In this document: piece by piece, positions 47,776-59,750 of the stretch
Layout: every line of letters starts with the position of its first letter
How positions within the stretch are numbered: position 1 is the stretch's first letter
Source: an uncultured Ruminococcus sp.
GTDB taxonomy: Bacteria; Bacillota; Clostridia; Oscillospirales; CAG-272
Direction: 5' to 3'
Assembly: GCA_964621755.1 (NCBI GenBank)
Contig: CAZUPI010000002.1
Coordinates: forward strand, 4,442 to 68,441
Length of the DNA: 64,000 bases
Notes under the pieces: model-generated
Databases searched by the model: none
The model's input: the letters and a program-made list of their open reading frames with translations, nothing else
What the model was told of the DNA's origin: nothing
Translations under genes and position numbers: made by a program

Positions 47776-49509
47776 ATGACTGACAGAAACATTATCGGAC
47801 AGAAAATCGCATCCCTCAGAAAGGCCAAGGGTATCACTCAGGCGGACCTTGCGAACATGGTCGGGGTCAGCCCGCAAGCTGTATCTCAGTGGGAACGCAG
47901 TGAAACTTTACCCGATATTCTTACGCTTCCCCGTCTCGCAGAGATTTTTGATGAAAGTATATCCGCTCTTCTTGGAATAGAAGATTCTGCCCCCACAACA
48001 AATGCGGAAGCAGAAGCAGTGGAAGAACCCGCGACAGAAGAGAGCACTCCCGCCGCCGATACAGATACAGTGGAAGAACCTGAAATCGTCGAAAGCGAGG
48101 CCGACGACGAAAAAAAATGCGATCCGTACGGTTGCGAAAACGAGGAATCCTCCACAACTACAGACCGTACGGATACCATCGAGGATGCTGTAAATGCTGC
48201 CGCCGACATCGATGCCGCTTTGGATGCTGTTGAAGCAGAACATGACAAGCTCACGGAAGAAGCCGAAGCAGAAGAACACGAGGAGCCTGAAAAACATGAA
48301 GAACCGGACTCTGATGACTTCACCTTCCATACGCCGAATATACACATCCCTGAAATCAACTTTCCCGAAATCCGCCTGCCCGGCGGACGTGTGATTCCGG
48401 CTAAGAAAATCCCGGCAAAAGATATCAACGGAAAGACCATAACTGTAGAAAATGTCGCAGAGAAGATAGCGGATAAAATGAATAACATCGATTTTGACTT
48501 CAACTCTGCAAAATCAACATGCCAGATTGCGGATGTTTCTGGCTTCTCACTCCCTGTGAGCAAATATACCATCGATTTTGACGACTCGAACGAAAGCTAC
48601 GAAGTTGCCATCATCAAGGACGGAAAGATTGTGAAGCGCTTCTCCGCTTCCCCGAACAATTTTGTACAGCTCGTGGTAAACGGAAACATCAATACCCTTA
48701 ATGCGGCTATATCTGTTGAAGTAAACGGTAACGTAGGAGACGCAGCTTCCGGATTTGACATGACAATCAACGGAAACGTCGATGGCGACGCGCACGCGAG
48801 TATGACTCTGACCTGCGGTGATGTAGCCGGCGACGCCTCTTCAAACATGACGCTCAACTGCAACAATGTGGGAGGCGACGCGCACGCAAATATGACGCTG
48901 AACGTAAACGGCAGAGTCGGATACGATGACGACGATAACGACGATGACGACCGCGACATACAGGTCGACGGCATGAACGTCACGATAAACGGCGACTACG
49001 ACGGCGACCTGTCGGCTGCGGCAAATGTAACCGTATGCGGAAGTGTTCTGGGCAACGTCGATGCCGGTGGTTCCGTCAGCGCGGACGGCGATATCGACGG
49101 CGACGTTGATGCAGGCGATTCCGTCACAGCAGGCGGCGATATCAACGGCGACGTCGATGCAGGTAATGATGTAACGGCAGGCGGCGATATCAACGGCGAC
49201 GTCGATACCGGAAAGGACGTTATCGCAGAAGGCGACATCAACGGAGACGTTGACACGGGCGGTTCCGTCACAGCAGGCGGAGACATCGGCGGCGACATTG
49301 ACACGGGCGGTTCCGTCATAGCAGGCGGAAACATCGACGGCGCCGTTGACACATCTGGAAACGTATCGATTGGCGGAGACGCTGCGGGAGACATCAGCGG
49401 AAACAACGTCACGGTAACGGGAAACGTATACGGCGACATTACCGCGGACGGAAAAGTCAAAATTTACGGCGCCGCCCCCAATTGCGAAAATGATGATGAC
49501 GAAGAATGA
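47776..49509 (+). CDS. XRE-family HTH protein fused to an acidic linker and long Gly/Asp-rich beta-solenoid (bactofilin-like) repeats
   Basis: 577 aa with the SD ACGGAGGT. The HTH_3 N-terminus is IGQKIASLRKAKGITQADLANMVGVSPQAVSQWERSE. A D/E-rich linker of about 130 aa follows. The C-terminus carries 16-aa repeats (AGGDINGDVDAGNDVT). No TM segment is present. Confidence 0.85.
   Translation: MTDRNIIGQKIASLRKAKGITQADLANMVGVSPQAVSQWERSETLPDILTLPRLAEIFDESISALLGIEDSAPTTNAEAEAVEEPATEESTPAADTDTVEEPEIVESEADDEKKCDPYGCENEESSTTTDRTDTIEDAVNAAADIDAALDAVEAEHDKLTEEAEAEEHEEPEKHEEPDSDDFTFHTPNIHIPEINFPEIRLPGGRVIPAKKIPAKDINGKTITVENVAEKIADKMNNIDFDFNSAKSTCQIADVSGFSLPVSKYTIDFDDSNESYEVAIIKDGKIVKRFSASPNNFVQLVVNGNINTLNAAISVEVNGNVGDAASGFDMTINGNVDGDAHASMTLTCGDVAGDASSNMTLNCNNVGGDAHANMTLNVNGRVGYDDDDNDDDDRDIQVDGMNVTINGDYDGDLSAAANVTVCGSVLGNVDAGGSVSADGDIDGDVDAGDSVTAGGDINGDVDAGNDVTAGGDINGDVDTGKDVIAEGDINGDVDTGGSVTAGGDIGGDIDTGGSVIAGGNIDGAVDTSGNVSIGGDAAGDISGNNVTVTGNVYGDITADGKVKIYGAAPNCENDDDEE
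49033..49416 (+). repeat. Eight imperfect 48-bp tandem repeats inside the HTH-solenoid gene
   Basis: The units begin at 49033, 49081, 49129, 49177, 49225, 49273, 49321 and 49369. An example unit is GCAGGCGGCGATATCAACGGCGACGTCGATGCAGGTAATGATGTAACG. Confidence 0.85.
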
Positions 49510-50366: not shown

Positions 50367-51407
50367 TTTTATAACGGAACGCCGACAGAGAGCGTTTCGG
50401 CAGGAGCCGCTGGACGACCGCTCCGGACAGTATGCGGCAAATGGACTTTCACCGCGGGCAAGGCGGAGACATTCCGCGAAGCGCTGCAATTCTTCCGCAT
50501 TATCCACTATGCGCTTTGGGCGGAGGGAAATTATCACAACACGATTGGCAGGTTCGACAAGTACATGATGCTCGGCGGGTCAGACGGAATGGGCGGCGAG
50601 ATTTATAACAAGCTTACCGCGATGTGTCTGCGCGCGTCGGGCGAGTTGAAGCTCATCGACCCCAAAATCAACCTTCGCGTGACGAAAAATACGCCCCTGG
50701 GGGTCTATCAGGAAGGGACAAAACTCACAAAGGTTGGGCTTGGCTTCCCGCAGTACTCGAACGACGATGTTGTGATTCCGGCCCTCGTGAATCTCGGATA
50801 CGACGACGAAATCGCACATTTGCTTCGCAGCGAGTCGCCGAAGGTCGGGAGTGCCGATTCAGATACCGCCGACGAGCAGCTTGTATGGCTGACCGAGGTA
50901 TTCTCCGCTTCCCTGCGCGGGAAAAAGAATGAACGCGGCGGAATCTGGCGCGCCGGAACCGGTTCCGCGATGTTTTATCTGTGGCACGCGGAAGAAATCG
51001 GTGCGTCCCCTGACGGCAGGCGGCGCGGTGAGCCGTTCGCTGCCAACTACTCGGCATCCCTGTTCGCCAAAATCGACGATCCGGTCCATATCGTGAAATC
51101 CTTCACGAAACCGGACCTTGCGAAGGTCATCAACGGCGGTCCTTTGACGCTTGAATTCGACAGCAAAATTTTTGCGAATGAGGAAAGCATGACTAAGGTG
51201 GCGTCTCTTGTAAAATATTTCGTGAGCCGCGGTGGACATCAGCTCCAGCTCAATGCGGTATCCCACGAGGCGCTCCTCGACGCGCAGATTCATCCGGAAA
51301 AGTACGAGCGGCTGATTGTACGCATCTGGGGCTGGAGTGCCTATTTTGTGGAACTGGACAAGGGCTTCCAGGACCATGTGATACGCAGGCAAGAGTATCG
51401 CATGTAA
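50367..51407 (+). pseudogene. Deletion-riddled remnant of a glycyl radical enzyme (PFL-like). The only ATG-initiated ORF is 50565-51407.
   Basis: The C-terminus carries a glycyl-radical motif (LIVRIWGWSAYFVEL) preceded by GASPDGRRRGEPFAANYS. Upstream in the same frame, AETFREALQFFRIIHYALW..GRFDKYM matches the mid-region of GREs but has no start codon. The total is about 1 kb against about 2.4 kb for intact enzymes, and the catalytic Cys loop is absent. Confidence 0.7.
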
Positions 51408-51555: not shown

Positions 51556-53703
51556 ATGAAAAAGTTTTTATCACTTGCGCTTGCCGTTTTGATACCACTC
51601 TCCTCGGCGGCTATACTCGCTTCCTGCGGCAAGGTAAGCGACGAAGACAACGTTATCATTCTTGGCAATACAACGGAACTTTCGGGTGACTTCCGTTTTC
51701 CCGGGTACGGCGCCTCATCATCCAGCGCTGCTGACCAGGACATCAACAAACTCACCGTCGGCTATTCCACCATGGAAACAAACCAGACCGGTGAATACGT
51801 ATGGAATGAAACCGCAGTTAAATCCCATACAGAGGAAGTTGTTGACAATGGGGACGGTACCGAAAACTATAGGATAACCATCGAAATCAACGAAGATCTG
51901 ACCTTCTCCGACGGTACTCCCATTACTGCGGATAACTACCTGGCCTACACGTTAGCGTTCAGTACCATCGTCGCACGCAACGCGGGCAGCACAGGTATGG
52001 CCGGGCAGTCCTTAGTAGGTTTTGCCGACTTCGCCAACTATGCCGGCGAGGGCGTCAAAGTAAATCCAGAAGCAAATGCTGCCAAAGAATTCGCAGGTGT
52101 TCGCAAGCTCGGCGAATACGAATTCTCCCTCGAGATTGACGGCGCTACCGGATTTTATCCCTACTACTACGCATACATTTACTCGGCAGTCACCCCCTAC
52201 GATTTGGGGCTTATCTTCGGCGACGGCGTATCCATCAAGGACGACGGCAAGGGCTGCTACCTCGAAGGCAGCTGGTATGAGCAGCGCGCTGACTCCACCG
52301 CTGACGCTCTCGCTTTCAAGAAATCCGCGCACATGCAGGAAGCGCGTTATGACACAACAAAATATCCCTTCTCCGGTCCTTATACCATCACAGCATGGGA
52401 TGAAGGTACCAAGCAGGCTACTCTGACCAGAAACGACCTGTTCCAGGGCAACTTTGAAGATCAAAAGCCGGCCATTCTCACAGTTGTGTATGTCAAAATC
52501 GTTGCCGAAACACAGATTGACCTCCTAACAAGCGGGGGCGTTGACGTCCTTTCAGGCGTGACCGGCGGCGATATGACAAAGGCGGCGCTTCAGGTTGTCG
52601 GCAGCGGCTTCAAGGAAAACCACTATCAAAAAGCCGGTTACGGCAAAATTCAGTTTGACTGCGACTTCGGTCCCACTCTGTTCGTGGAGGTCCGCCAGGC
52701 AATCGCGACCCTTCTCGACAGACCTACGTTTGCCACCACCTTTACAGGAGGCTACGGAAAAGTTGTAAACGGTCCGTATTCGGAAGACTCCTGGATGTAT
52801 CTCGCCGCAAGGGACACACTGGAAGACGCCATGAACACATACGAATACTCCCTTGCAAACGCCAAAACCATCCTGGAAGAAGGAGGCTGGATATACAATT
52901 CCAAGGGGGAACCATATGTTGAAGGTGCGTCCGGCGTTGACAAAGTGCGTTACAAGAAAATAACAAGAGAAGAGCTTGAGACGCTTACTACAAAAGACTG
53001 TGTAGAAGCCACCATCAACTACCAATCCGTAAACAATACCGACAGCATCGTCTATAAAACCACAGAAATAAATGGTGCATACTATATCCCGCTGGCAATC
53101 AACTGGTTCTCTACCGCCGACAACGCGGTATCCGACCTTCTTTCCACCATGCTCGCAAACGGCACTGATGTGACAGCTGCGGGTATGGTAATCCGTCAGG
53201 CAGTCGGCGACTTCAACTCTCTCCTCGGCGAAATTTATCGTGAACCTTCGTACGGCTACAACGGCGTTATCAAATACAGTATGTATAACCTCGCAACAAG
53301 CTTTACCAGCACGATATATGACTTCTCCTGGAACTGGTCTCTTGACCCGAATTACTTTGCGTACTCGGTAAACAAGCTCTACGACGAGTACGACGCGGCG
53401 TTCCCGTACTATGATGCAGACGGCAGCCACGAAAAACGCAGCTATGCGGAAGCATTGGAAAAGTCCGGCGGCAAGCTTGGTATGGACTACCTGTCCATGG
53501 CAATGGTATACGACGCCGCATCCAACGAAGAATACCTGGAATGGTGGACAGCGTATATCCAGAGATGGAACGAGCTTATCCCCGATATCCCGCTGTACTG
53601 CAACTTCTACTACGACGTATACAACGAAAAGATTCAAGATTACTACACCTCTCCTTATTGGAGAACTGCTGATGCTGTTCTTTACTGCTCTATCAAGGGC
53701 TGA
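51556..53703 (+). CDS. ABC transporter substrate-binding lipoprotein, family 5 (Opp/Dpp type), oversized
   Basis: 715 aa. The signal peptide plus lipobox is LSSAAILASCGK. SBP_bac_5-like segments are present (DLTFSDGTPITADNY). The SD is GGAGG. Confidence 0.85.
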   Translation: MKKFLSLALAVLIPLSSAAILASCGKVSDEDNVIILGNTTELSGDFRFPGYGASSSSAADQDINKLTVGYSTMETNQTGEYVWNETAVKSHTEEVVDNGDGTENYRITIEINEDLTFSDGTPITADNYLAYTLAFSTIVARNAGSTGMAGQSLVGFADFANYAGEGVKVNPEANAAKEFAGVRKLGEYEFSLEIDGATGFYPYYYAYIYSAVTPYDLGLIFGDGVSIKDDGKGCYLEGSWYEQRADSTADALAFKKSAHMQEARYDTTKYPFSGPYTITAWDEGTKQATLTRNDLFQGNFEDQKPAILTVVYVKIVAETQIDLLTSGGVDVLSGVTGGDMTKAALQVVGSGFKENHYQKAGYGKIQFDCDFGPTLFVEVRQAIATLLDRPTFATTFTGGYGKVVNGPYSEDSWMYLAARDTLEDAMNTYEYSLANAKTILEEGGWIYNSKGEPYVEGASGVDKVRYKKITREELETLTTKDCVEATINYQSVNNTDSIVYKTTEINGAYYIPLAINWFSTADNAVSDLLSTMLANGTDVTAAGMVIRQAVGDFNSLLGEIYREPSYGYNGVIKYSMYNLATSFTSTIYDFSWNWSLDPNYFAYSVNKLYDEYDAAFPYYDADGSHEKRSYAEALEKSGGKLGMDYLSMAMVYDAASNEEYLEWWTAYIQRWNELIPDIPLYCNFYYDVYNEKIQDYYTSPYWRTADAVLYCSIKG

Positions 53704-53768: not shown

Positions 53769-53871
53769 TTATATGTCCCACTTTAGCAAATATCCCTGCA
53801 CGTTTTATCCAATGAAACGTACAACCGGCCGCGCATATTCTATTTTTAAATTTCGAATTCTGAGGTGTATT

Positions 53872-54891
53872 ATGGGAAAGTACATACTGAAACGTATCGG
53901 TTATATGCTGCTTGTCCTCGTGATTCTCTCCTTTCTCATGTATCTTATTTACAATATGATACCGTACGATAGAGCGCGTGCCCTCGTCGAAGAACAAAAG
54001 GCGGTCTATAAAAATGACCCGGCAGGATTCGAGCGTGCATACCAGAATTACCGCCACCAGTTAGGCCTCGACCGGAGCGTCGTATTCCGCTACCTCCATT
54101 GGATTGGTCTTGTGCCAATTGACGGAGTCTACGACGGTTTGCTGCAGGGCAACTTCGGCTGGAGCTTCCAATACAACCGCCCCGCAACGGAGGTCCTCGT
54201 CGAACCGATGCGCAATACCATCTTTATTAATATCTTCGCAACCCTATTCGCTCTCGGTATTACCCTCCCTCTCGGCATCTTCTGTGCCGTACACCGCGGC
54301 AGCAAACGGGACTCCGCCGTTCAAATCGGCACCATCGTCGGCTACAGCATCCCGAGCTTTATCATCGCAATTCTGTTCATCTGTCTCTTTGCCGTCATTA
54401 TCCCGATATTCCCCGTCAGCGGTATGAAAACCCCCGGAAGCAGTTACTCTGGAATCAAAAAATTCTTCGACGAGCTTTACTACATGGGACTTCCCCTCGT
54501 CGTGATGACCTTTTCCTCCCTCGGCGGCATGACCCGTTACGTCCGCGCTTCCATGACCGAAGCACTCTCTATGGACTGTATCCGCACCGCACGTGCAAAA
54601 GGACTGCATGAAAAGGTCGTTATTTATTCTCACGCTTGGAGAAACGCCCTCATCCCGATTATCACCCTGATTATCGGATGGTTTATCGGCATCTTCTCCG
54701 GCTCCCTTATGATTGAAAATATTTTTGCTCTCAACGGAATGGGGCGTATCTACATCAACTCGCTCAACTCCAACGACTATGAGGTGGTGCTGATTCTGCA
54801 AATGTTCTACGTCACCCTTGCGCTGCTCGGCAATCTGATAATAGACATTGCATACGGCGTCGCAGATCCGCGTGTCCGTGTGTCAAAGTAA
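53872..54891 (+). CDS. ABC transporter permease (OppB/DppB type)
   Basis: The start at 53872 (MGKYILKRIGYMLLVLVI) is canonical for OppB-like proteins. About 339 aa with 6 TM helices. The track's upstream extension lacks an SD. Confidence 0.9.
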   Translation: MGKYILKRIGYMLLVLVILSFLMYLIYNMIPYDRARALVEEQKAVYKNDPAGFERAYQNYRHQLGLDRSVVFRYLHWIGLVPIDGVYDGLLQGNFGWSFQYNRPATEVLVEPMRNTIFINIFATLFALGITLPLGIFCAVHRGSKRDSAVQIGTIVGYSIPSFIIAILFICLFAVIIPIFPVSGMKTPGSSYSGIKKFFDELYYMGLPLVVMTFSSLGGMTRYVRASMTEALSMDCIRTARAKGLHEKVVIYSHAWRNALIPIITLIIGWFIGIFSGSLMIENIFALNGMGRIYINSLNSNDYEVVLILQMFYVTLALLGNLIIDIAYGVADPRVRVSK

Positions 54892-54909: not shown

Positions 54910-56829
54910 ATGAAAAAAAAGAAAAAATCACTCCGTCATTCATGGCTCGGCAGAATGTTCTGGGGCGCATCCAAAACTCTCGACGACAATCCCGATAAAT
55001 ACGCAAGTCCCGGGAAACTCGCCGTACAACGCTTCTTCCGCCGTCCCGCAGCCTGCGTTGCGCTTGCAATCATCATCGTCATGTTTCTGTTCGTCTTTAT
55101 CGGGCCGCTTATCAACCCAATTGACCTTTCTTATTCGGAAACCCTCCACAAAAATCTCGGTCCCTCCTATGACATGATATCCATTCCGTCCGCTCTTGCG
55201 AGGGACGTCAAGGAAATTTCATCTTATTCCTCCTTTTCTCTCGGGCTTGACAACGCCGGAAACGTCTACACATGGGGCAAAACCTACCTGAAGGATGTCA
55301 AAATCGATATTTCGGACATCCCTGAAGAAGTGCAAAACAACAATATCGTTCACGCGGCTGCCGGTATCGACCACGCTGTGGCCATCTCCGAAGACGGTCA
55401 CCTCTACTGCTGGGGCGCATATGACAACGGTCAGTACGGTATGAACGGCAGCATGATTTCCATAGCAAAGCCGCAGCCGTACGACCTCATCACCGGCACG
55501 ATTGACGTGGCAAATGTAAAACAGCTCATCTGCGGCAACCAGGTCACAGCAATTGTCATGAACGACGGCTCCTCTTATATGTGGGGCAACTACAATATCG
55601 GCGCCACCAACATTACCTCGTTTGACGATATTCCCAACCTCGAAAAGGTCGTGTTCCTCCAATCCCTCATTGTCGGCATCACACAGGACGGTAAATTCGT
55701 TTGCGGCAAGACCTCCGCGTTTGACTCGTATGAAATCATCAATGCAAACGGCGCCGCTGCGCTCACCAATCTCTGGGATTTTCTGGATGACCATAAAGTC
55801 GTCGATATTGCGTCCAATATGACAAACGCCTGTCTCCTGCTTGAGGACGGTTCTCTTCTTATCGTCGGGGCGTCTGGGGACAACTCCCGCGCGATTCCGA
55901 CCATCCCGGACGGCGAAACCGTAACGGCAGTCTACGGCGGCGCAAGGCACTACGCCCTCCTCACCGACGCCGGACGTGTTCTCACATGGGGCGGCAGCGC
56001 GCTCAGCCAGACCGATATTCCCGTCTCTATGCAAAATCCCGGCGCCGCTGACAACCTCTACTGCGTCGGTTTCCAGACTTATGCTGAAAAAGACGGCGAA
56101 ATTGTGGAAAAGTGGGGCTTCAAAGGCTATCTCATGGGAACCGACGAGATCGGACGGGACATATTTGTCCGCGTGATGAACGGCGGTAAAATGACCATGA
56201 CCATCGGTGCGGTCGCGGTTATTCTTTCCTCTGTCATCGGCATCATCATCGGCTGTATCTCGGGCTACTTCGGCGGAAAGGTCGACATTTTTCTCATGCG
56301 TGTGACCGAGATTTTTTCCGCCATTCCGTTTCTGCCGTTCGCACTTGTCCTGTCTGCAATCCTCCGTCAAACGGACGTAAAGGAGGACACGCGAATTTTC
56401 CTCATCATGGTTGTGCTCGGTATTCTGACGTGGACCGGACTGGCGCGGCTCGTCCGCGGTCAAGTACTCGCGGAACGGGAAAAGGAATTTGTTCTGGCAG
56501 CACAGTCGATGGGGGTCCCCGAGAGCCGTATCGCGTTCAAGCACATCCTGCCAAACGTCATTTCGGTCATCATCGTATCCCTTACCCTTGACTTCGCCGG
56601 ATGTATGCTCACCGAAGCGTCCCTGTCTTACCTCGGCTTCGGCGTACAGCTTCCCCGTCCGACATGGGGCAACATGCTCTACGGATGCAACAGCTCAATT
56701 GTCATCAAATCCTACTGGTGGAGATGGGTCTTCCCAGCCCTCTTCCTTTCGGCCAGCACCATTTCCATCAACGTAATCGGTGATACCCTGCGCGATATTT
56801 TTGACCCGAAGTCGGAGGTTGAAAAATAA
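54910..56829 (+). CDS. ABC transporter permease (OppC/DppC type) with a roughly 310-aa RCC1-like beta-propeller inserted in the first external loop
   Basis: 639 aa. TM1 is CVALAIIIVMFLFVFIGPLI. Seven repeats of about 45-50 aa follow (GNVYTWG, GHLYCWGAYDNGQYG, GSSYMWG, GKFVCG, GSLLIVG, GRVLTWG, EIVEKWG). Canonical OppC sequence then resumes: LMGTDEIGRDIFVRVMNGGKMTMTIG plus 5 TM helices. Confidence 0.85.
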   Translation: MKKKKKSLRHSWLGRMFWGASKTLDDNPDKYASPGKLAVQRFFRRPAACVALAIIIVMFLFVFIGPLINPIDLSYSETLHKNLGPSYDMISIPSALARDVKEISSYSSFSLGLDNAGNVYTWGKTYLKDVKIDISDIPEEVQNNNIVHAAAGIDHAVAISEDGHLYCWGAYDNGQYGMNGSMISIAKPQPYDLITGTIDVANVKQLICGNQVTAIVMNDGSSYMWGNYNIGATNITSFDDIPNLEKVVFLQSLIVGITQDGKFVCGKTSAFDSYEIINANGAAALTNLWDFLDDHKVVDIASNMTNACLLLEDGSLLIVGASGDNSRAIPTIPDGETVTAVYGGARHYALLTDAGRVLTWGGSALSQTDIPVSMQNPGAADNLYCVGFQTYAEKDGEIVEKWGFKGYLMGTDEIGRDIFVRVMNGGKMTMTIGAVAVILSSVIGIIIGCISGYFGGKVDIFLMRVTEIFSAIPFLPFALVLSAILRQTDVKEDTRIFLIMVVLGILTWTGLARLVRGQVLAEREKEFVLAAQSMGVPESRIAFKHILPNVISVIIVSLTLDFAGCMLTEASLSYLGFGVQLPRPTWGNMLYGCNSSIVIKSYWWRWVFPALFLSASTISINVIGDTLRDIFDPKSEVEK

Positions 56830-57857
56830 TGGAGAAAAAAAACGATGTTTTGCTTCAGGTAAAGAATCTGCATACCTACTTTAAAACCAGAAACGGCATC
56901 ATCAAGGCGGTAAACGACGTCTCATACGAGCTTTGCGCCGGTAAGACCCTCGGTATCGTAGGTGAGTCCGGTTCCGGCAAAAGCGTATCGGCCATGAGCA
57001 TTCTCCGCCTTCTGGACGCCAACGGCTATATCGCGGAGGGAGAAATCCTCTTTCGCGGACAAAATCTCGTCACCCTTCCCATTCAAGATATGTACAACAT
57101 CCGCGGAAATAAAATTTCGGTTATCTTCCAGGAACCGATGACGAGCTTAAACCCGGTCTTTACGATAAAAAGACAGCTTTCCGAACCGTTCATGATTCAC
57201 CAGAAGATGTCCATGGAGGAGGCCGCAAAAAAGAGTCTTGAAATGCTCGAAGCGGTGCAGATTCCAAACCCGGAAGCGGTTCTCCGGCAATATCCGCACC
57301 AGCTCTCCGGCGGTATGAGACAGCGCGTCATGATAGCGATGGCGCTCGCCTGCAAGCCGGACATTCTCATCGCGGACGAGCCGACCACAGCCCTTGACGT
57401 CACGATTCAGGCACAGATTCTCAAGCTCATGAACGACCTCCAGCGCACCAACGGCACGTCGATTCTCTTCATCACCCATGACCTCGGCGTCATCAATGAA
57501 ATGGCGGACGACGTAGTCGTCATGTACTGTGGGCAGGCGGTCGAACAGGCGCCGGCAAAGGTGATTTTCACCGACTGCAAGTTCAGCCATCCGTATACAG
57601 AGGGGCTGATGTTCTCCATCCCGCGTCTGAACGACACACGCGCGAAGCTCGACCCGATTCCCGGCGTAGTCCCGCACCCCCTCGCCCTGCCGAAGGGATG
57701 CAAATTCTCGCCGCGGTGCAAATACTGCACACAGAAGTGCATAGACGACGAGCCCAAGCTGCTGCCGGCAGGTGAAAATCAGCTTATCCGGTGCCACTAT
57801 CCCGAAAAAGCGGTGAGGAGGAGCGCAGAGCATGAAAAAATTGCTATCCATCAATAA
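56829..57857 (+). CDS. ABC transporter ATP-binding protein (OppD/DppD type)
   Basis: 342 aa. Walker A is GESGSGKSV, the signature is LSGGMRQR and Walker B is ILIADEPTTALD. The C-terminal oligo_HPY region contains Cys residues (CKFSPRCKYC). Confidence 0.92.
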   Translation: MEKKNDVLLQVKNLHTYFKTRNGIIKAVNDVSYELCAGKTLGIVGESGSGKSVSAMSILRLLDANGYIAEGEILFRGQNLVTLPIQDMYNIRGNKISVIFQEPMTSLNPVFTIKRQLSEPFMIHQKMSMEEAAKKSLEMLEAVQIPNPEAVLRQYPHQLSGGMRQRVMIAMALACKPDILIADEPTTALDVTIQAQILKLMNDLQRTNGTSILFITHDLGVINEMADDVVVMYCGQAVEQAPAKVIFTDCKFSHPYTEGLMFSIPRLNDTRAKLDPIPGVVPHPLALPKGCKFSPRCKYCTQKCIDDEPKLLPAGENQLIRCHYPEKAVRRSAEHEKIAIHQ

Positions 57858-59436
57858 CCTGAAAAAATACTTCCCTCTCGCGAAAAAAAGCCTTTTTCAA
57901 AAGGAGCAATACTATGTGCGCGCCAACGACGATATCTCCCTTGACATCTACGAAGGCGAGACGTTCGGATTGGTAGGGGAATCGGGATGCGGCAAATCGA
58001 CGCTTGGACGTGTGATTCTCCAACTCTATCATCAGACCGCCGGGAGTACCATGTACTACGGCCGAACCCTTGCGCAGGCTGCACCGAGTTATGTCATCGA
58101 TACGTTAAAGCACGCGGAGGAGTACGTTGCCGCGTACCATGCTGCGGAAAAGAAAGCGGCGGAAGCTGTGGAAAAGTGCAAACTTCTCGGGGAGAACGCA
58201 ACATTTCTCGACCTGCAAAGCAAAAATCTCGCACTTGCAAAAGCACAGACCGCGTGCAGCAAGACAGCAAAAATTCTCGGCGGCTTTGCAGCGGAAGGAA
58301 CCCGCGAAGGAGCGGACGCTCTGCTTGCCCTATTTGAAATAAACGTAGAAGAAGCGGAAATCCGCCGCAAAATCGAGGATATCGAGCTGGAAACGGAGCT
58401 CATGGAAGGAAAAATCGAGGACCAGAAGAAAGCGGGCAGCTCGATCGACTCACGGAACAGCAAGCTGTCCGGTCTGCGCGAGAAGAAAAAAACATTGGAG
58501 ACGGAAAGAAAAGCGGTCGGTGATAAGCGCGCAGCAGCAGAAGCGAAAGTGGAAACGCTGCGCACAAAGTACCGCGGTCACGCCGAATTTGATAAATACG
58601 AAGCGATGCTTGACGACGGCATTGACCTTTCAAGATTGACCGCTGCCGAAATGCGCGCGATTCGCCGCGACCTGCAAATTATCTTCCAAGACCCGTACTC
58701 CTCGCTGAACCCGCGTATGACCGTCGGTCAGATAATCGCAGAAGGGTTGGTGACACACAAATTTTTCAAACGCGGATCACCGAAAATGAAGGAATACATC
58801 CTCCGCGAAATGGAGAACTGCGGATTACCGGACTACATGTACAGCCGTTATCCGCACCAATTTTCGGGCGGTCAGCGTCAGAGAATCTGCATCGCACGTT
58901 CTCTCGCCGTTAAGCCAAAATTTGTGGTCTGCGACGAGTGCGTATCCGCGCTTGACGTGTCGATTCAGTCGCAGATTATCAACCTGCTTCAGGAGCTGAA
59001 GGAAAAGGAAAAGCTGACGTACCTGTTCATCTCCCACAATCTGTCGGTCGTACGGTACATCTCAGACCGAATCGGCGTCATGTACCTTGGAAATATGGTA
59101 GAAGTAGCGCCGACGGACACGATATTTAAAGACCCGCGTCATCCTTACACCGTAGCGCTCCTGTCCTCCATCCCCACAACGGACCTCGAAGGCTCCAAAA
59201 AGGAACGCATCATCCTTGGCGGAAACATCCCCAGCCCGATAAAGCCGCCGTCCGGATGCAAGTTTCACCCCCGCTGCTACATGGCGTGCGACAAATGCAA
59301 GCGTGTTCCTCCGCCGTACGTAGAAGTTGAGCCGGGTCATTTTGTAGCCTGTCACAATCTCGACCGCAAGGTCGATGAAAATGGAGCCTACCTATTCGAA
59401 CTCCACCAATCCGAAGCGGAGCTTGGAAAGGATTGA
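57832..59436 (+). CDS. ABC transporter ATP-binding protein (OppF/DppF type) with a roughly 190-aa coiled-coil insertion after the Walker A region
   Basis: 534 aa. Walker A is GESGCGKST. An insertion at aa 81-268 is rich in A/E/K heptad-like sequence. Canonical sequence then resumes: LQIIFQDPYSSLNPRMTVGQ, FSGGQRQR, FVVCDECVSALD. Confidence 0.88.
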   Translation: MKKLLSINNLKKYFPLAKKSLFQKEQYYVRANDDISLDIYEGETFGLVGESGCGKSTLGRVILQLYHQTAGSTMYYGRTLAQAAPSYVIDTLKHAEEYVAAYHAAEKKAAEAVEKCKLLGENATFLDLQSKNLALAKAQTACSKTAKILGGFAAEGTREGADALLALFEINVEEAEIRRKIEDIELETELMEGKIEDQKKAGSSIDSRNSKLSGLREKKKTLETERKAVGDKRAAAEAKVETLRTKYRGHAEFDKYEAMLDDGIDLSRLTAAEMRAIRRDLQIIFQDPYSSLNPRMTVGQIIAEGLVTHKFFKRGSPKMKEYILREMENCGLPDYMYSRYPHQFSGGQRQRICIARSLAVKPKFVVCDECVSALDVSIQSQIINLLQELKEKEKLTYLFISHNLSVVRYISDRIGVMYLGNMVEVAPTDTIFKDPRHPYTVALLSSIPTTDLEGSKKERIILGGNIPSPIKPPSGCKFHPRCYMACDKCKRVPPPYVEVEPGHFVACHNLDRKVDENGAYLFELHQSEAELGKD

Positions 59437-59664: not shown

Positions 59665-59708
59665 CGGAATGTAACAGATATTTTTTCCTTTCCATCTAGC
59701 GATAAAGT

Positions 59709-59750
59709 AAAGGGTACAGTTTCTTGCATAGACTGTACCCTTTGTTTTGT
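59709..59750 (+). terminator. Rho-independent terminator of the ABC operon
   Basis: A 12-bp stem (AAAGGGTACAGT/ACTGTACCCTTT) with an 11-nt loop is followed by TGTTTTGTT. Confidence 0.7.

Follow-up and report, generated by a model that had tools for sequence, protein, structure and literature searches.

A predicted all-helical domain inside the OppF-type ATPase of a Clostridia peptide-type ABC importer whose OppC permease carries an RCC1-like beta-propeller

In the window, that is, the whole stretch of 64,000 nucleotides from an uncultured Ruminococcus sp. that was analysed here, we found an OppF-type ATPase whose nucleotide-binding domain (NBD) contains, in a surface loop, an insert confidently predicted to be a folded, all-helical domain of ~185 residues with up-down-up-down topology. 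The neck and base of this domain (AP.Y entry, GGF turn, EF..YE..LDDG exit) are conserved and adjoin the NBD, the distal ~26 residues of each strand of its second hairpin form a solvent-exposed antiparallel coiled coil, and this distal hairpin differs freely between homologues in both sequence and length, some lineages lacking it. The insert marks out a Clostridia-specific operon family with an extracellular RCC1 beta-propeller on OppC.

Sequence comparison identified OppF as the nucleotide-binding subunit, of OppF/DppF type and with its motifs intact, of a five-gene peptide-type ABC importer of the PepT family. Pfam recognized all five members of the set, in which OppF is accompanied by two BPD_transp_1 permeases, a second ATPase and an SBP_bac_5 protein. 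The 5' end of oppF shares 26 nt with the 3' end of oppD. In OppC, the RCC1-like beta-propeller follows the first transmembrane helix (OppC_N) and precedes the BPD_transp_1 core, and the match of the substrate-binding protein (SBP) to PF00496 is restricted to residues 106-452. Nickel, opines and oligosaccharides are further ligands of family-5 SBPs.

The ATPase motifs (GESGCGKST, Q286, FSGGQ, D368-E369 and H402) are invariant in 120 homologues and align with those of solved OppF and OppD proteins, and the C-terminus of OppF contains oligo_HPY (PF08352, E 1.5e-18). The four cysteines C476, C482, C489 and C507, which constitute a putative [4Fe-4S] ligand set, are spaced 6/7/18 as compared with 6/7/17 in E. 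coli DppF, where the cluster ligands are C293, C299, C306 and C323 (PMC12136057). The NCBIfam OppF equivalog model NF011659 scored 354.2 bits, under its cut-off of 540, because the insert splits the match into two stretches; judged by these models, the protein is OppF-type, yet not the E. coli equivalog. The closest solved relatives, Mtb OppD (8j5q_D) and E. coli OppF/DppF (8z21_D, 8z1v_D; Foldseek E 2e-21, phmmer E 2e-84), have the ATPase motifs and the four-cysteine C-terminal oligo_HPY domain in common with OppF, and their systems likewise comprise two permeases, a second ATPase and a family-5 SBP. They differ in lacking the ~185 residues added where the strand that follows Walker A gives way to the helix preceding the Q-loop, which break the Pfam ABC_tran match into two stretches, and in having no RCC1 propeller on the partner OppC.

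An earlier note, made from the sequence alone, had proposed an insertion into an otherwise canonical OppF-type NBD whose flanks lie close together in E. coli-type OppF, and both points held. The strings on which it relied are present as quoted, namely GESGCGKSTLGRVILQLYHQTAGSTMYYGRTL (residues 49-80), AEKKAAEAVEKCKLL (105-119), EEAEIRRKIEDIELETELMEGKIEDQKK (173-200), KKKTLETERKAVGDKRAAAEAKVETLRTKY (218-247) and MRAIRRDLQIIFQDPYSSLNPR (274-295). In the phmmer alignment with E. coli OppF (8z21_D), residues 2-84 of OppF matched chain residues 9-92 and residues 268-511 matched 90-332; since these are adjoining segments, E. coli OppF is contiguous at the insert site and ~183-186 residues of the insert have no counterpart there. 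The GC content of the insert DNA is 0.52, equal to that of the flanks, its sole bias is the purine richness expected from A/E/K codons, and no tandem repeats were found in the insert region; flank-like GC and the lack of tandem repeats rule out that it arose recently, by expansion of a repeat or from foreign DNA. Each of the 120 best full-length homologues (65-85% identical, 482-589 aa) has the insert at this position, which indicates that it is real and maintained by selection and did not arise by chance or from misassembly. The features of the operon and of the insert are listed in Table 1.

Table 1. Coordinates in the window of the operon genes, the ATPase motifs and the parts of the OppF insert
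Feature	Residues	Position	Strand	Basis or remark
Family-5 substrate-binding lipoprotein, lipobox LASC	715 aa	51556..53703	+	ORF list, Pfam
oppB permease		53860..54891	+	Pfam
oppC permease	639 aa	54910..56829	+	Pfam
RCC1-like beta-propeller in OppC	~93-402	55186-56115		Pfam
oppD, canonical partner ATPase without insert	342 aa	56829..57857	+	
oppF-type ATPase gene	534 aa	57832..59436	+	ORF list, Pfam ABC_tran and oligo_HPY
Walker A GESGCGKST	49-57	57976..58002	+	invariant alignment columns
Insert in OppF	81-268	58072..58635	+	phmmer to 8z21_D; MAFFT with canonical OppD of the same operon
Entry neck helix APSYVIDTL	85-93	58084..58110	+	
Helix 1, outward from NBD	95-122	58114..58197	+	AlphaFold2 DSSP, pLDDT >90
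Helix 2, returning to NBD	125-153	58204..58290	+	
Helix 3, outward, 45 residues	157-201	58300..58434	+	AlphaFold2
Distal antiparallel coiled-coil hairpin	176-232	58357..58527	+	variable, dispensable
Hairpin tip GSSI, G/S-rich, variable	202-205	58435..58446	+	AlphaFold2 DSSP
Helix 4, return, 42 residues	206-247	58447..58572	+	
Exit neck helix AEFDKYE	251-257	58582..58602	+	leads to canonical DDGIDLSRL strand
Q-loop glutamine Q286, 3' of insert	286	58687..58689	+	alignment to solved OppF, homologue columns
ABC signature FSGGQ through Walker B FVVCD and catalytic E369	344-348 (FSGGQ) to 369	58861..58938	+	
H-loop H402	402	59035..59037	+	invariant column
C-terminal cysteines	476, 482, 489, 507	59257..59352	+	oligo_HPY, invariant
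Terminator-like hairpin, 20-pair stem, closes operon		59703..59749	+	

AlphaFold2 modelled the full OppF with a pTM of 0.77 and a pLDDT of 85-98 across the insert, and the insert alone with a pLDDT of 95.9 and a pTM of 0.86. The four long helices were predicted at pLDDT 92-98, a level that AlphaFold2 can give to long helices paired within one molecule or between molecules alike, and the insert is evidently not disordered low-complexity sequence. The turns that join the helices are only 2-4 residues long, so that adjacent helices must be antiparallel, with 28-29 residues per helix in hairpin 1 and 42-45 in hairpin 2. Helix 1 has a hydrophobic period of 3.4, and helix 2 begins at a conserved ATFFDLQxKNL and finishes at a near-universal ILGGF turn (148-152). 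An internal duplication relating hairpin 1 to hairpin 2 was ruled out (hhalign probability 1.8%). The insert had been described as one coiled-coil arm of roughly 190 residues; its helical and partly coiled-coil character is borne out by the model and by the heptads of helix 4, but it is a four-helix structure, not a single arm. Its conserved base comprises two hairpins together with the neck, and about 57 residues (176-232) alone form the protruding hairpin.

The insert is not peculiar to one genome. At least 157 Clostridia genomes, counted at species level, encode an OppF that carries it, and the carriers include the cultivable Acetatifactor aquisgranensis. Homologue sets were built by full-length protein search and exhaustive profile search, the latter giving a family of 93 clusters at 50% identity; owing to the word index, a search with the insert alone returned a single match, a 302-aa fragment. 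Among the matches listed, those that keep the N-terminus have their alignment start at about residue 69-128, mostly 75-85, and many others are fragments. Wherever the upstream sequence of a close relative could be read, the gene order was SBP-OppB-OppC (RCC1 propeller)-OppD-OppF (insert), and the operon is kept in two loci with short insert variants (L003, L039). Co-occurrence with the RCC1-bearing permease thus applies to every testable close relative, but not to a distant insert-bearing relative with a plain OppC (L084); another distant relative (L085) has no permease adjacent. Together, L084 and L085 suggest that any functional link between insert and propeller is not general. The reverse search with the RCC1 region gave only 25 matches, mostly fragments from the same clade.

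The NBDs of ABC importers are usually minimal, and the accessory domains known on such NBDs are C-terminal (MalK, MetN and OpuA). The OppF described here is different in holding a confidently folded domain inside the NBD, without a Pfam, NCBIfam or PDB match and in only one of the two ATPases. On balance, and with moderate confidence, we take the modelled insert to be a rigid module in the cytoplasm, serving docking or architecture, on the transporter half formed by OppC and OppF. The stalk would probably stand outside ATP hydrolysis and, as a rigid projection on the outer face of the NBD, reach into the cytoplasm, where it could serve as a docking or architectural element for some other portion of the transporter, for a further transporter, or for a cytoplasmic protein whose gene lies elsewhere in the genome; its conserved base may be the surface that matters for function, with the distal coiled coil as a spacer. 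In E. coli, DppC pairs with DppF (PMC12136057), which by homology would put propeller and stalk on one transporter half, the former on the outer and the latter on the inner side of the membrane. In the core clade, the stalk is strictly linked to the extracellular beta-propeller, which is expected directly above it on the permease. It is conceivable, though we hold this as a speculation with little weight, that the OppC-OppF half acts as a trans-membrane coupling device, in which the propeller senses or captures a polymeric or surface ligand and the stalk recruits or positions a cytoplasmic machine. If so, the complex would be a transceptor or nanomachine, not a plain importer, and the recruited machine might be a peptidase, a regulator or a second transporter.

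The most serious competitor of the docking reading, unlikely though we consider it, is neutral embellishment, in which a tolerant loop has taken up a helical domain that is a lineage-specific, harmlessly folding passenger. Identity to the OppF studied is 84-86% in the NBD, 51% in the insert base and 27% in the distal hairpin, which is lost in some lineages (it is missing from homologues of 482-484 aa); single hairpins are absent from distant members, among which hairpins have been gained or lost independently; and no conserved flanking or partner gene was found near the operon, the largest neighbour cluster comprising 7 loci. The poor conservation and loss of the distal hairpin, the absent hairpins and the missing partner gene would suit a passenger, and the last also counts against docking; the gradient of conservation from NBD to distal hairpin is in line with the docking reading as well. 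The base is harder to reconcile with it, because its invariants across 120 homologues include the polar residues T91, Q129 and N132. P85, Y87 and T91 of the entry neck are invariant in the close clade, as is F253 of the exit neck, and at 42-57% overall identity distant members still retain the neck elements, though only the NBD-proximal P85/Y87, G150/G151 and D261/G263/D265. Moreover, the heptad pattern is upheld despite sequence drift, and the insert has been kept across the at least 157 species.

Large insertions at the same site in the Mollicutes OppD/OppF models also speak for a tolerant loop. NF043078 (MMSYN1_0168, 649 positions) and NF043079 (MMSYN1_0167, 561 positions) carry insertions of ~340 and ~225 positions there, respectively, as estimated from profile offsets. 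Residues 8-77 and 86-310 of the canonical OppD aligned with Mollicutes profile positions 1-70 and 298-520, and residues 22-76 and 320-460 of OppF with positions 14-67 and 470-610. The whole-protein scores fell far under the cut-offs of the Mollicutes models (295.8 vs 800 and 239 vs 740), the insert alone had no match to NF043078 or NF043079 at E<=1, and in Mollicutes both ATPases are enlarged, in contrast to OppF alone in the Clostridia operon. On these comparisons, the Mollicutes insertions are unrelated to the Clostridia insert and the loop has repeatedly accepted insertions, as expected if it faces away from functional interfaces; insertion into the post-Walker-A loop thus appears to recur in this family, in Clostridia as well as in Mollicutes. 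The view that such arms are "not of importers" was therefore too strong.

A less probable alternative to docking is that the stalk is an allosteric brake or gate, which would tune closure of the OppD-OppF dimer, much as the regulatory domains at the C-termini of MalK and MetN do, and might be driven by a cytoplasmic signal. The insert does sit in the beta-subdomain beside the nucleotide pocket, immediately before the Q-loop strand, and the neck is apparently rigid, its junctions with the NBD being modelled at pLDDT 72-95 on both sides. Against this, the insert has no recognizable ligand-binding fold. Foldseek with the insert model against the PDB returned nothing below E 0.1, only generic helices of BAR, SNX and gamma-TuRC proteins; the insert profile against PDB sequences gave generic coiled coils alone, each above E 0.1; and Pfam and NCBIfam with the insert alone gave sub-threshold coiled-coil noise alone (SPAM, DUF3933, ASRP). 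In addition, the C-terminal Fe-S domains of the PepT family already hold the NBDs together (PMC12136057).

We give somewhat lower credence again to an intermolecular coiled coil, in which helices 3 and 4 would pair between OppF subunits and so cluster or dimerize transporters. The weak matches of the insert profile were to the oligomeric coiled coils Lpp, Jun, gp26 and ZapB, and the heptad pattern of helix 4 is strong, with a/d positions unbroken through L212, L215, L222, V229, A236, V240, L243 and Y247 and a period of 3.5 (p<0.001, the observed power being reached in 0 of 1000 shuffles); heptad periodicity of helix 3 across the alignment was not significant. However, the position of the tip and the equal deleted arms fit an intramolecular hairpin. 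The strongest helix-breaking 5-mer lies at 0.49 +/- 0.09 of the segment from GGF to F253 in the 61 homologues with an unambiguous call, and the deletion in the short homologues is symmetric about the predicted tip, removing 26 residues of helix 3, the tip and 26 residues of helix 4. Usable evidence on hairpin symmetry is limited to these two observations, the correlation of arm lengths across homologues being uninformative because total length is near-uniform and errors in locating the tip yield negative correlation. With its 4-residue turn, the heptads of helix 4 and the 26+26 deletion, the helix 3/helix 4 pair has the character of an antiparallel two-stranded coiled-coil hairpin, and the short variants L003 and L039 keep the operon without this region.

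Helical hairpins are better known from other ABC ATPases, and the earlier note had drawn on SMC/Rad50, UvrA and ABC-F proteins for comparison. UvrA is not known to have coiled-coil arms. In ABC-F proteins (EttA arm, inter-NBD linker), helical hairpins jut from the NBD as an interaction surface, but these proteins have two tandem NBDs per chain and no membrane partners, and their arm is part of the alpha-helical subdomain or of the stretch joining the NBDs; the single NBD of OppF and its two-permease transporter operon rule out ABC-F membership. SMC, Rad50 and RecN resemble OppF in that an antiparallel helical hairpin interrupts the ABC ATPase fold, but the topology differs, with the coiled coil of SMC/Rad50 after the Q-loop and the OppF insert (81-268) before Q286. 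The SMC/Rad50 arms are hundreds of residues long with a hinge or CxxC hook; those of OppF, ~10 times shorter, measure 42-45 residues and end in GSSI with neither. Unlike these proteins, OppF is, by its sequence, a transporter subunit with an Fe-S-type C-terminal domain. An SMC/Rad50- or ABC-F-like non-transport function, such as DNA or ribosome binding, is hardly credible, since its support (an SMC_N match of 23.9 bits, below the cut-off of 40, and precomputed PF02463 annotation on many homologues) is set against an insert that precedes the Q-loop, which refutes it on topology, and against a chain that has one NBD and the C-terminal domain of an OppF and is encoded in a transporter operon that is strictly conserved.

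No description of the insert was found in the literature on OppF, on RCC1-bearing ABC permeases, on the OppF/OppD inserts of Mycoplasma or on importer NBD insertions, and the operon family represents peptide-type importers of an asymmetric, uncharacterized subclass, borne by anaerobes that are abundant in the gut. For annotation, it is useful to know that insert-bearing OppFs miss equivalog cut-offs and attract spurious SMC_N matches.

The observation in the earlier note of extra residues in an otherwise canonical OppF was confirmed, and its interpretation was partly supported. The insert is real, selected and uncharacterised. A phmmer comparison with solved E. coli OppF (8z21_D) matched query residues 2-84 to chain residues 9-92 and query residues 268-511 to chain residues 90-332, so the E. 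coli protein is contiguous where the window protein has ∼183-186 extra residues; all sequence strings quoted in the note are present in it. The insert is preceded by the strand (YYGRTL) that comes after the Walker A helix, and is followed by a short helix and a strand running to the Q-loop (DLSRLTAAEMRAIRRDLQIIFQ286). Motifs, operon, structure and C-terminal domain all mark the protein as an OppF/DppF-type nucleotide-binding domain (NBD). The insert splits its match to the NCBIfam OppF equivalog, which leaves the score under the cut-off. The Walker A, Q-loop, signature, Walker B with catalytic glutamate, and H-loop are all present and invariant among 120 homologues, as are four C-terminal cysteines, spaced to match the [4Fe-4S] ligands of E. 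coli DppF (PMC12136057).

The insert DNA contains no tandem repeat and has the GC content of its flanks. Two alternative-frame ORFs overlap it, 58089-58565 (- strand, 158 aa) and 57987-58337 (+ strand, other frame, 116 aa); the A/E/K coding sequence here is purine-rich (AT skew up to 0.5), and these frames most likely arise from it rather than being genes.

The five-gene operon and the insert in its last gene (window coordinates)
Feature	Position	Strand	Remark
Family-5 substrate-binding lipoprotein	51556-53703	+	715 aa
OppB	53860-54891	+	
OppC	54910-56829	+	639 aa; RCC1-like beta-propeller between first transmembrane helix and permease core
OppD	56829-57857	+	342 aa; canonical
OppF	57832-59436	+	534 aa
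Insert in OppF	58072-58635		residues 81-268; phmmer alignment to 8z21_D
Terminator-like hairpin	59703-59749		20-bp stem; downstream of OppF

The possibility that the insert is disordered low-complexity sequence was contradicted by AlphaFold2, which gave a mean pLDDT of 95.9 and a pTM of 0.86 for the insert alone; for full OppF with a 120-sequence alignment the pTM was 0.77, with pLDDT 85-98 over residues 80-260. Helices were predicted at 85-93, 95-122, 125-153, 157-201, 206-247 and 251-257, and the connections between them are just 2-4 residues long, indicating an up-down-up-down topology of two hairpins (helices 1 and 2, at 95-122 and 125-153, then helices 3 and 4, at 157-201 and 206-247). 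That helices 3 and 4 form an antiparallel coiled-coil hairpin in their outer part is shown in three ways. First, the a/d heptad pattern of helix 4 is unbroken, with a period of 3.5 that was reached by 0 of 1000 shuffles; for helices 1 and 2 the periods are close to 3.4 (p about 0.04), and periodicity of helix 3 across the alignment was not significant. Second, the strongest helix-breaking segment falls midway along the GGF-to-F253 segment (0.49 ± 0.09 in the 61 homologues giving an unambiguous call). Third, residues 176-232 are missing from five homologues of 482-484 aa; the loss takes 26 residues from each of helices 3 and 4, together with the tip. Instead of the single ∼190-aa coiled-coil arm proposed in the earlier note, the insert is therefore best seen as a neck and base, both conserved, bearing a coiled-coil tip ∼4 nm long that is variable and dispensable. 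Internal duplication of one hairpin to give the other was also considered and was rejected, none being detectable.

Identity to the window protein is graded, from 84-86% in the NBD through 51% in the insert base to 27% in the distal hairpin. In distant relatives that bear the insert (42-57% overall identity), all that is kept is NBD-proximal, namely the AP.Y entry, the GG[FL] turn joining helices 2 and 3 and the EF..YE..LD.GIDL exit, and either hairpin may be absent. These data show that the ATPase is intact and carries a folded helical stalk, rigidly attached. We propose that this stalk juts from the NBD's outer face and has an architectural or docking role. Its functional surface would then be the conserved base, which includes two invariant polar residues at the hairpin 1 tip (Q129 and N132), with the distal coiled coil acting as a spacer. 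Alternatively, the insert might be a neutral embellishment of a permissive loop; the stalk might also act as an allosteric brake on NBD closure, or form an intermolecular coiled coil clustering transporters.

No Pfam or NCBIfam family, no relative among PDB sequences and no significant Foldseek match was found for the insert. Membership of SMC/Rad50 was ruled out by insertion point, arm length, apex and Pfam score, and that of ABC-F by domain architecture. About half of the insert-bearing OppF homologues carry a precomputed PF02463 (SMC_N) match, so automated pipelines could mislabel them as SMC-like; in the window OppF this match is under the gathering score. The view that such inserts are foreign to importers was too strong, since the curated OppD/OppF models of JCVI-syn1 (Mollicutes), the closest precedent, have ∼225/∼340 extra positions at exactly this site, although with no detectable similarity to the window insert. 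With both groups extended there, this loop seems to be a site of repeated insertion in PepT-family NBDs. We found no paper describing either the Clostridia insert or the Mollicutes case.

The insert is a family trait in gut Clostridia, not a singular oddity. It occurs in 120 of the 120 best full-length matches (65-85% identical, 482-589 aa), whose named carriers are MAGs of Eubacteriales, Ruminococcaceae, Clostridia and Lachnospiraceae; Acetatifactor aquisgranensis is a cultured carrier. A scan of one genome per species with a single strict insert motif confirmed 157 loci, and the 80 listed are all annotated Clostridia or unclassified, mostly from animal gut, including Oscillospiraceae, Acutalibacteraceae, Christensenellaceae and Lachnospiraceae. 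When 1.84 billion representatives were searched exhaustively by profile, 93 clusters were obtained, with no apparent stand-alone homologue of the insert; among the matches listed, those keeping the N-terminus begin at about residue 69-128 (most at 75-85), the full-length members retrieved are OppF-like with the insert at the same site, and many of the remainder are fragments.

Co-occurrence with the RCC1-bearing permease, which the earlier note proposed to check, was borne out among close relatives. In tblastn searches of each operon part against the 80 loci, the complete collinear SBP-OppB-OppC_N-RCC1-OppC_TMD-OppD-OppF(insert) order was present at every locus with enough upstream sequence. 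The same operon was found in L081, of a 464-aa short-insert lineage, and in L087, a locus reached from the RCC1 side; short-tip variants (L003) retain the propeller. However, at L084 a distant insert-bearing ATPase (P0226, 497 aa) adjoins a plain 300-aa OppC, and L085 (GCA_021442595.1, Lachnospiraceae) has OppD and insert-bearing OppF without adjacent permease or SBP genes, so the coupling is not universal. The L085 pair lies downstream of CobW_C and DUF1980_C genes. DppC partners DppF in E. coli DppBCDF (PMC12136057), and by homology propeller and stalk would share one half-transporter.

The RCC1-like region of OppC spans ∼310 residues (about 55186-56115; PF25390, PF13540 and PF00415 matches); lying after the OppC_N first transmembrane helix and before the BPD_transp_1 core, it is presumably extracellular. 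Its homologues are nearly all OppC fragments from the same clade as the window operon. The substrate-binding protein is unusually long, with lipobox LASC and PF00496 limited to residues 106-452, and this long form is kept across the operon family (e.g., 721 aa in L081). Among related loci, no conserved gene other than operon members adjoins the operon. Directly upstream of the operon in the window lies a 280-aa ORF (50565-51407) whose matches are confined to PFL-like positions 340-423 and to the glycine-radical domain; it looks like a truncated glycyl-radical enzyme remnant. A 577-aa protein (47776-49509) has an HTH_3 (XRE-type) domain at its N-terminus and bactofilin repeats at its C-terminus.

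This operon type occurs twice in some genomes. L047 and L050, from one MAG (CAZMAZ01), are divergent paralogues; L048 and L049, likewise from a single MAG (CAZNCN01), lie on different contigs and gave the same tblastn coordinates and identities. A distant insert-bearing OppF, P0171 at L083 (JGI 3300002449), has a TP_0584_C-family gene nearby, a context hinting that the insert may range beyond Clostridia, possibly into spirochaetes. The ATPase motifs are degenerate in P0201 (511 aa) and P0129 (445 aa), two distant insert-bearing paralogues (Walker A as SETNSGSD or GEAGSGKS with altered context; Q-loop FQDP replaced; signature gone); both may be non-catalytic NBDs retaining the stalk. P0178 (485 aa) and P0173 (433 aa) join an OppF N-terminus and the first part of the insert to unrelated C-terminal sequence, one resembling an ABC-F second NBD and the other a DnaC/IstB-type ATPase; they are either assembly chimeras or real fusions.
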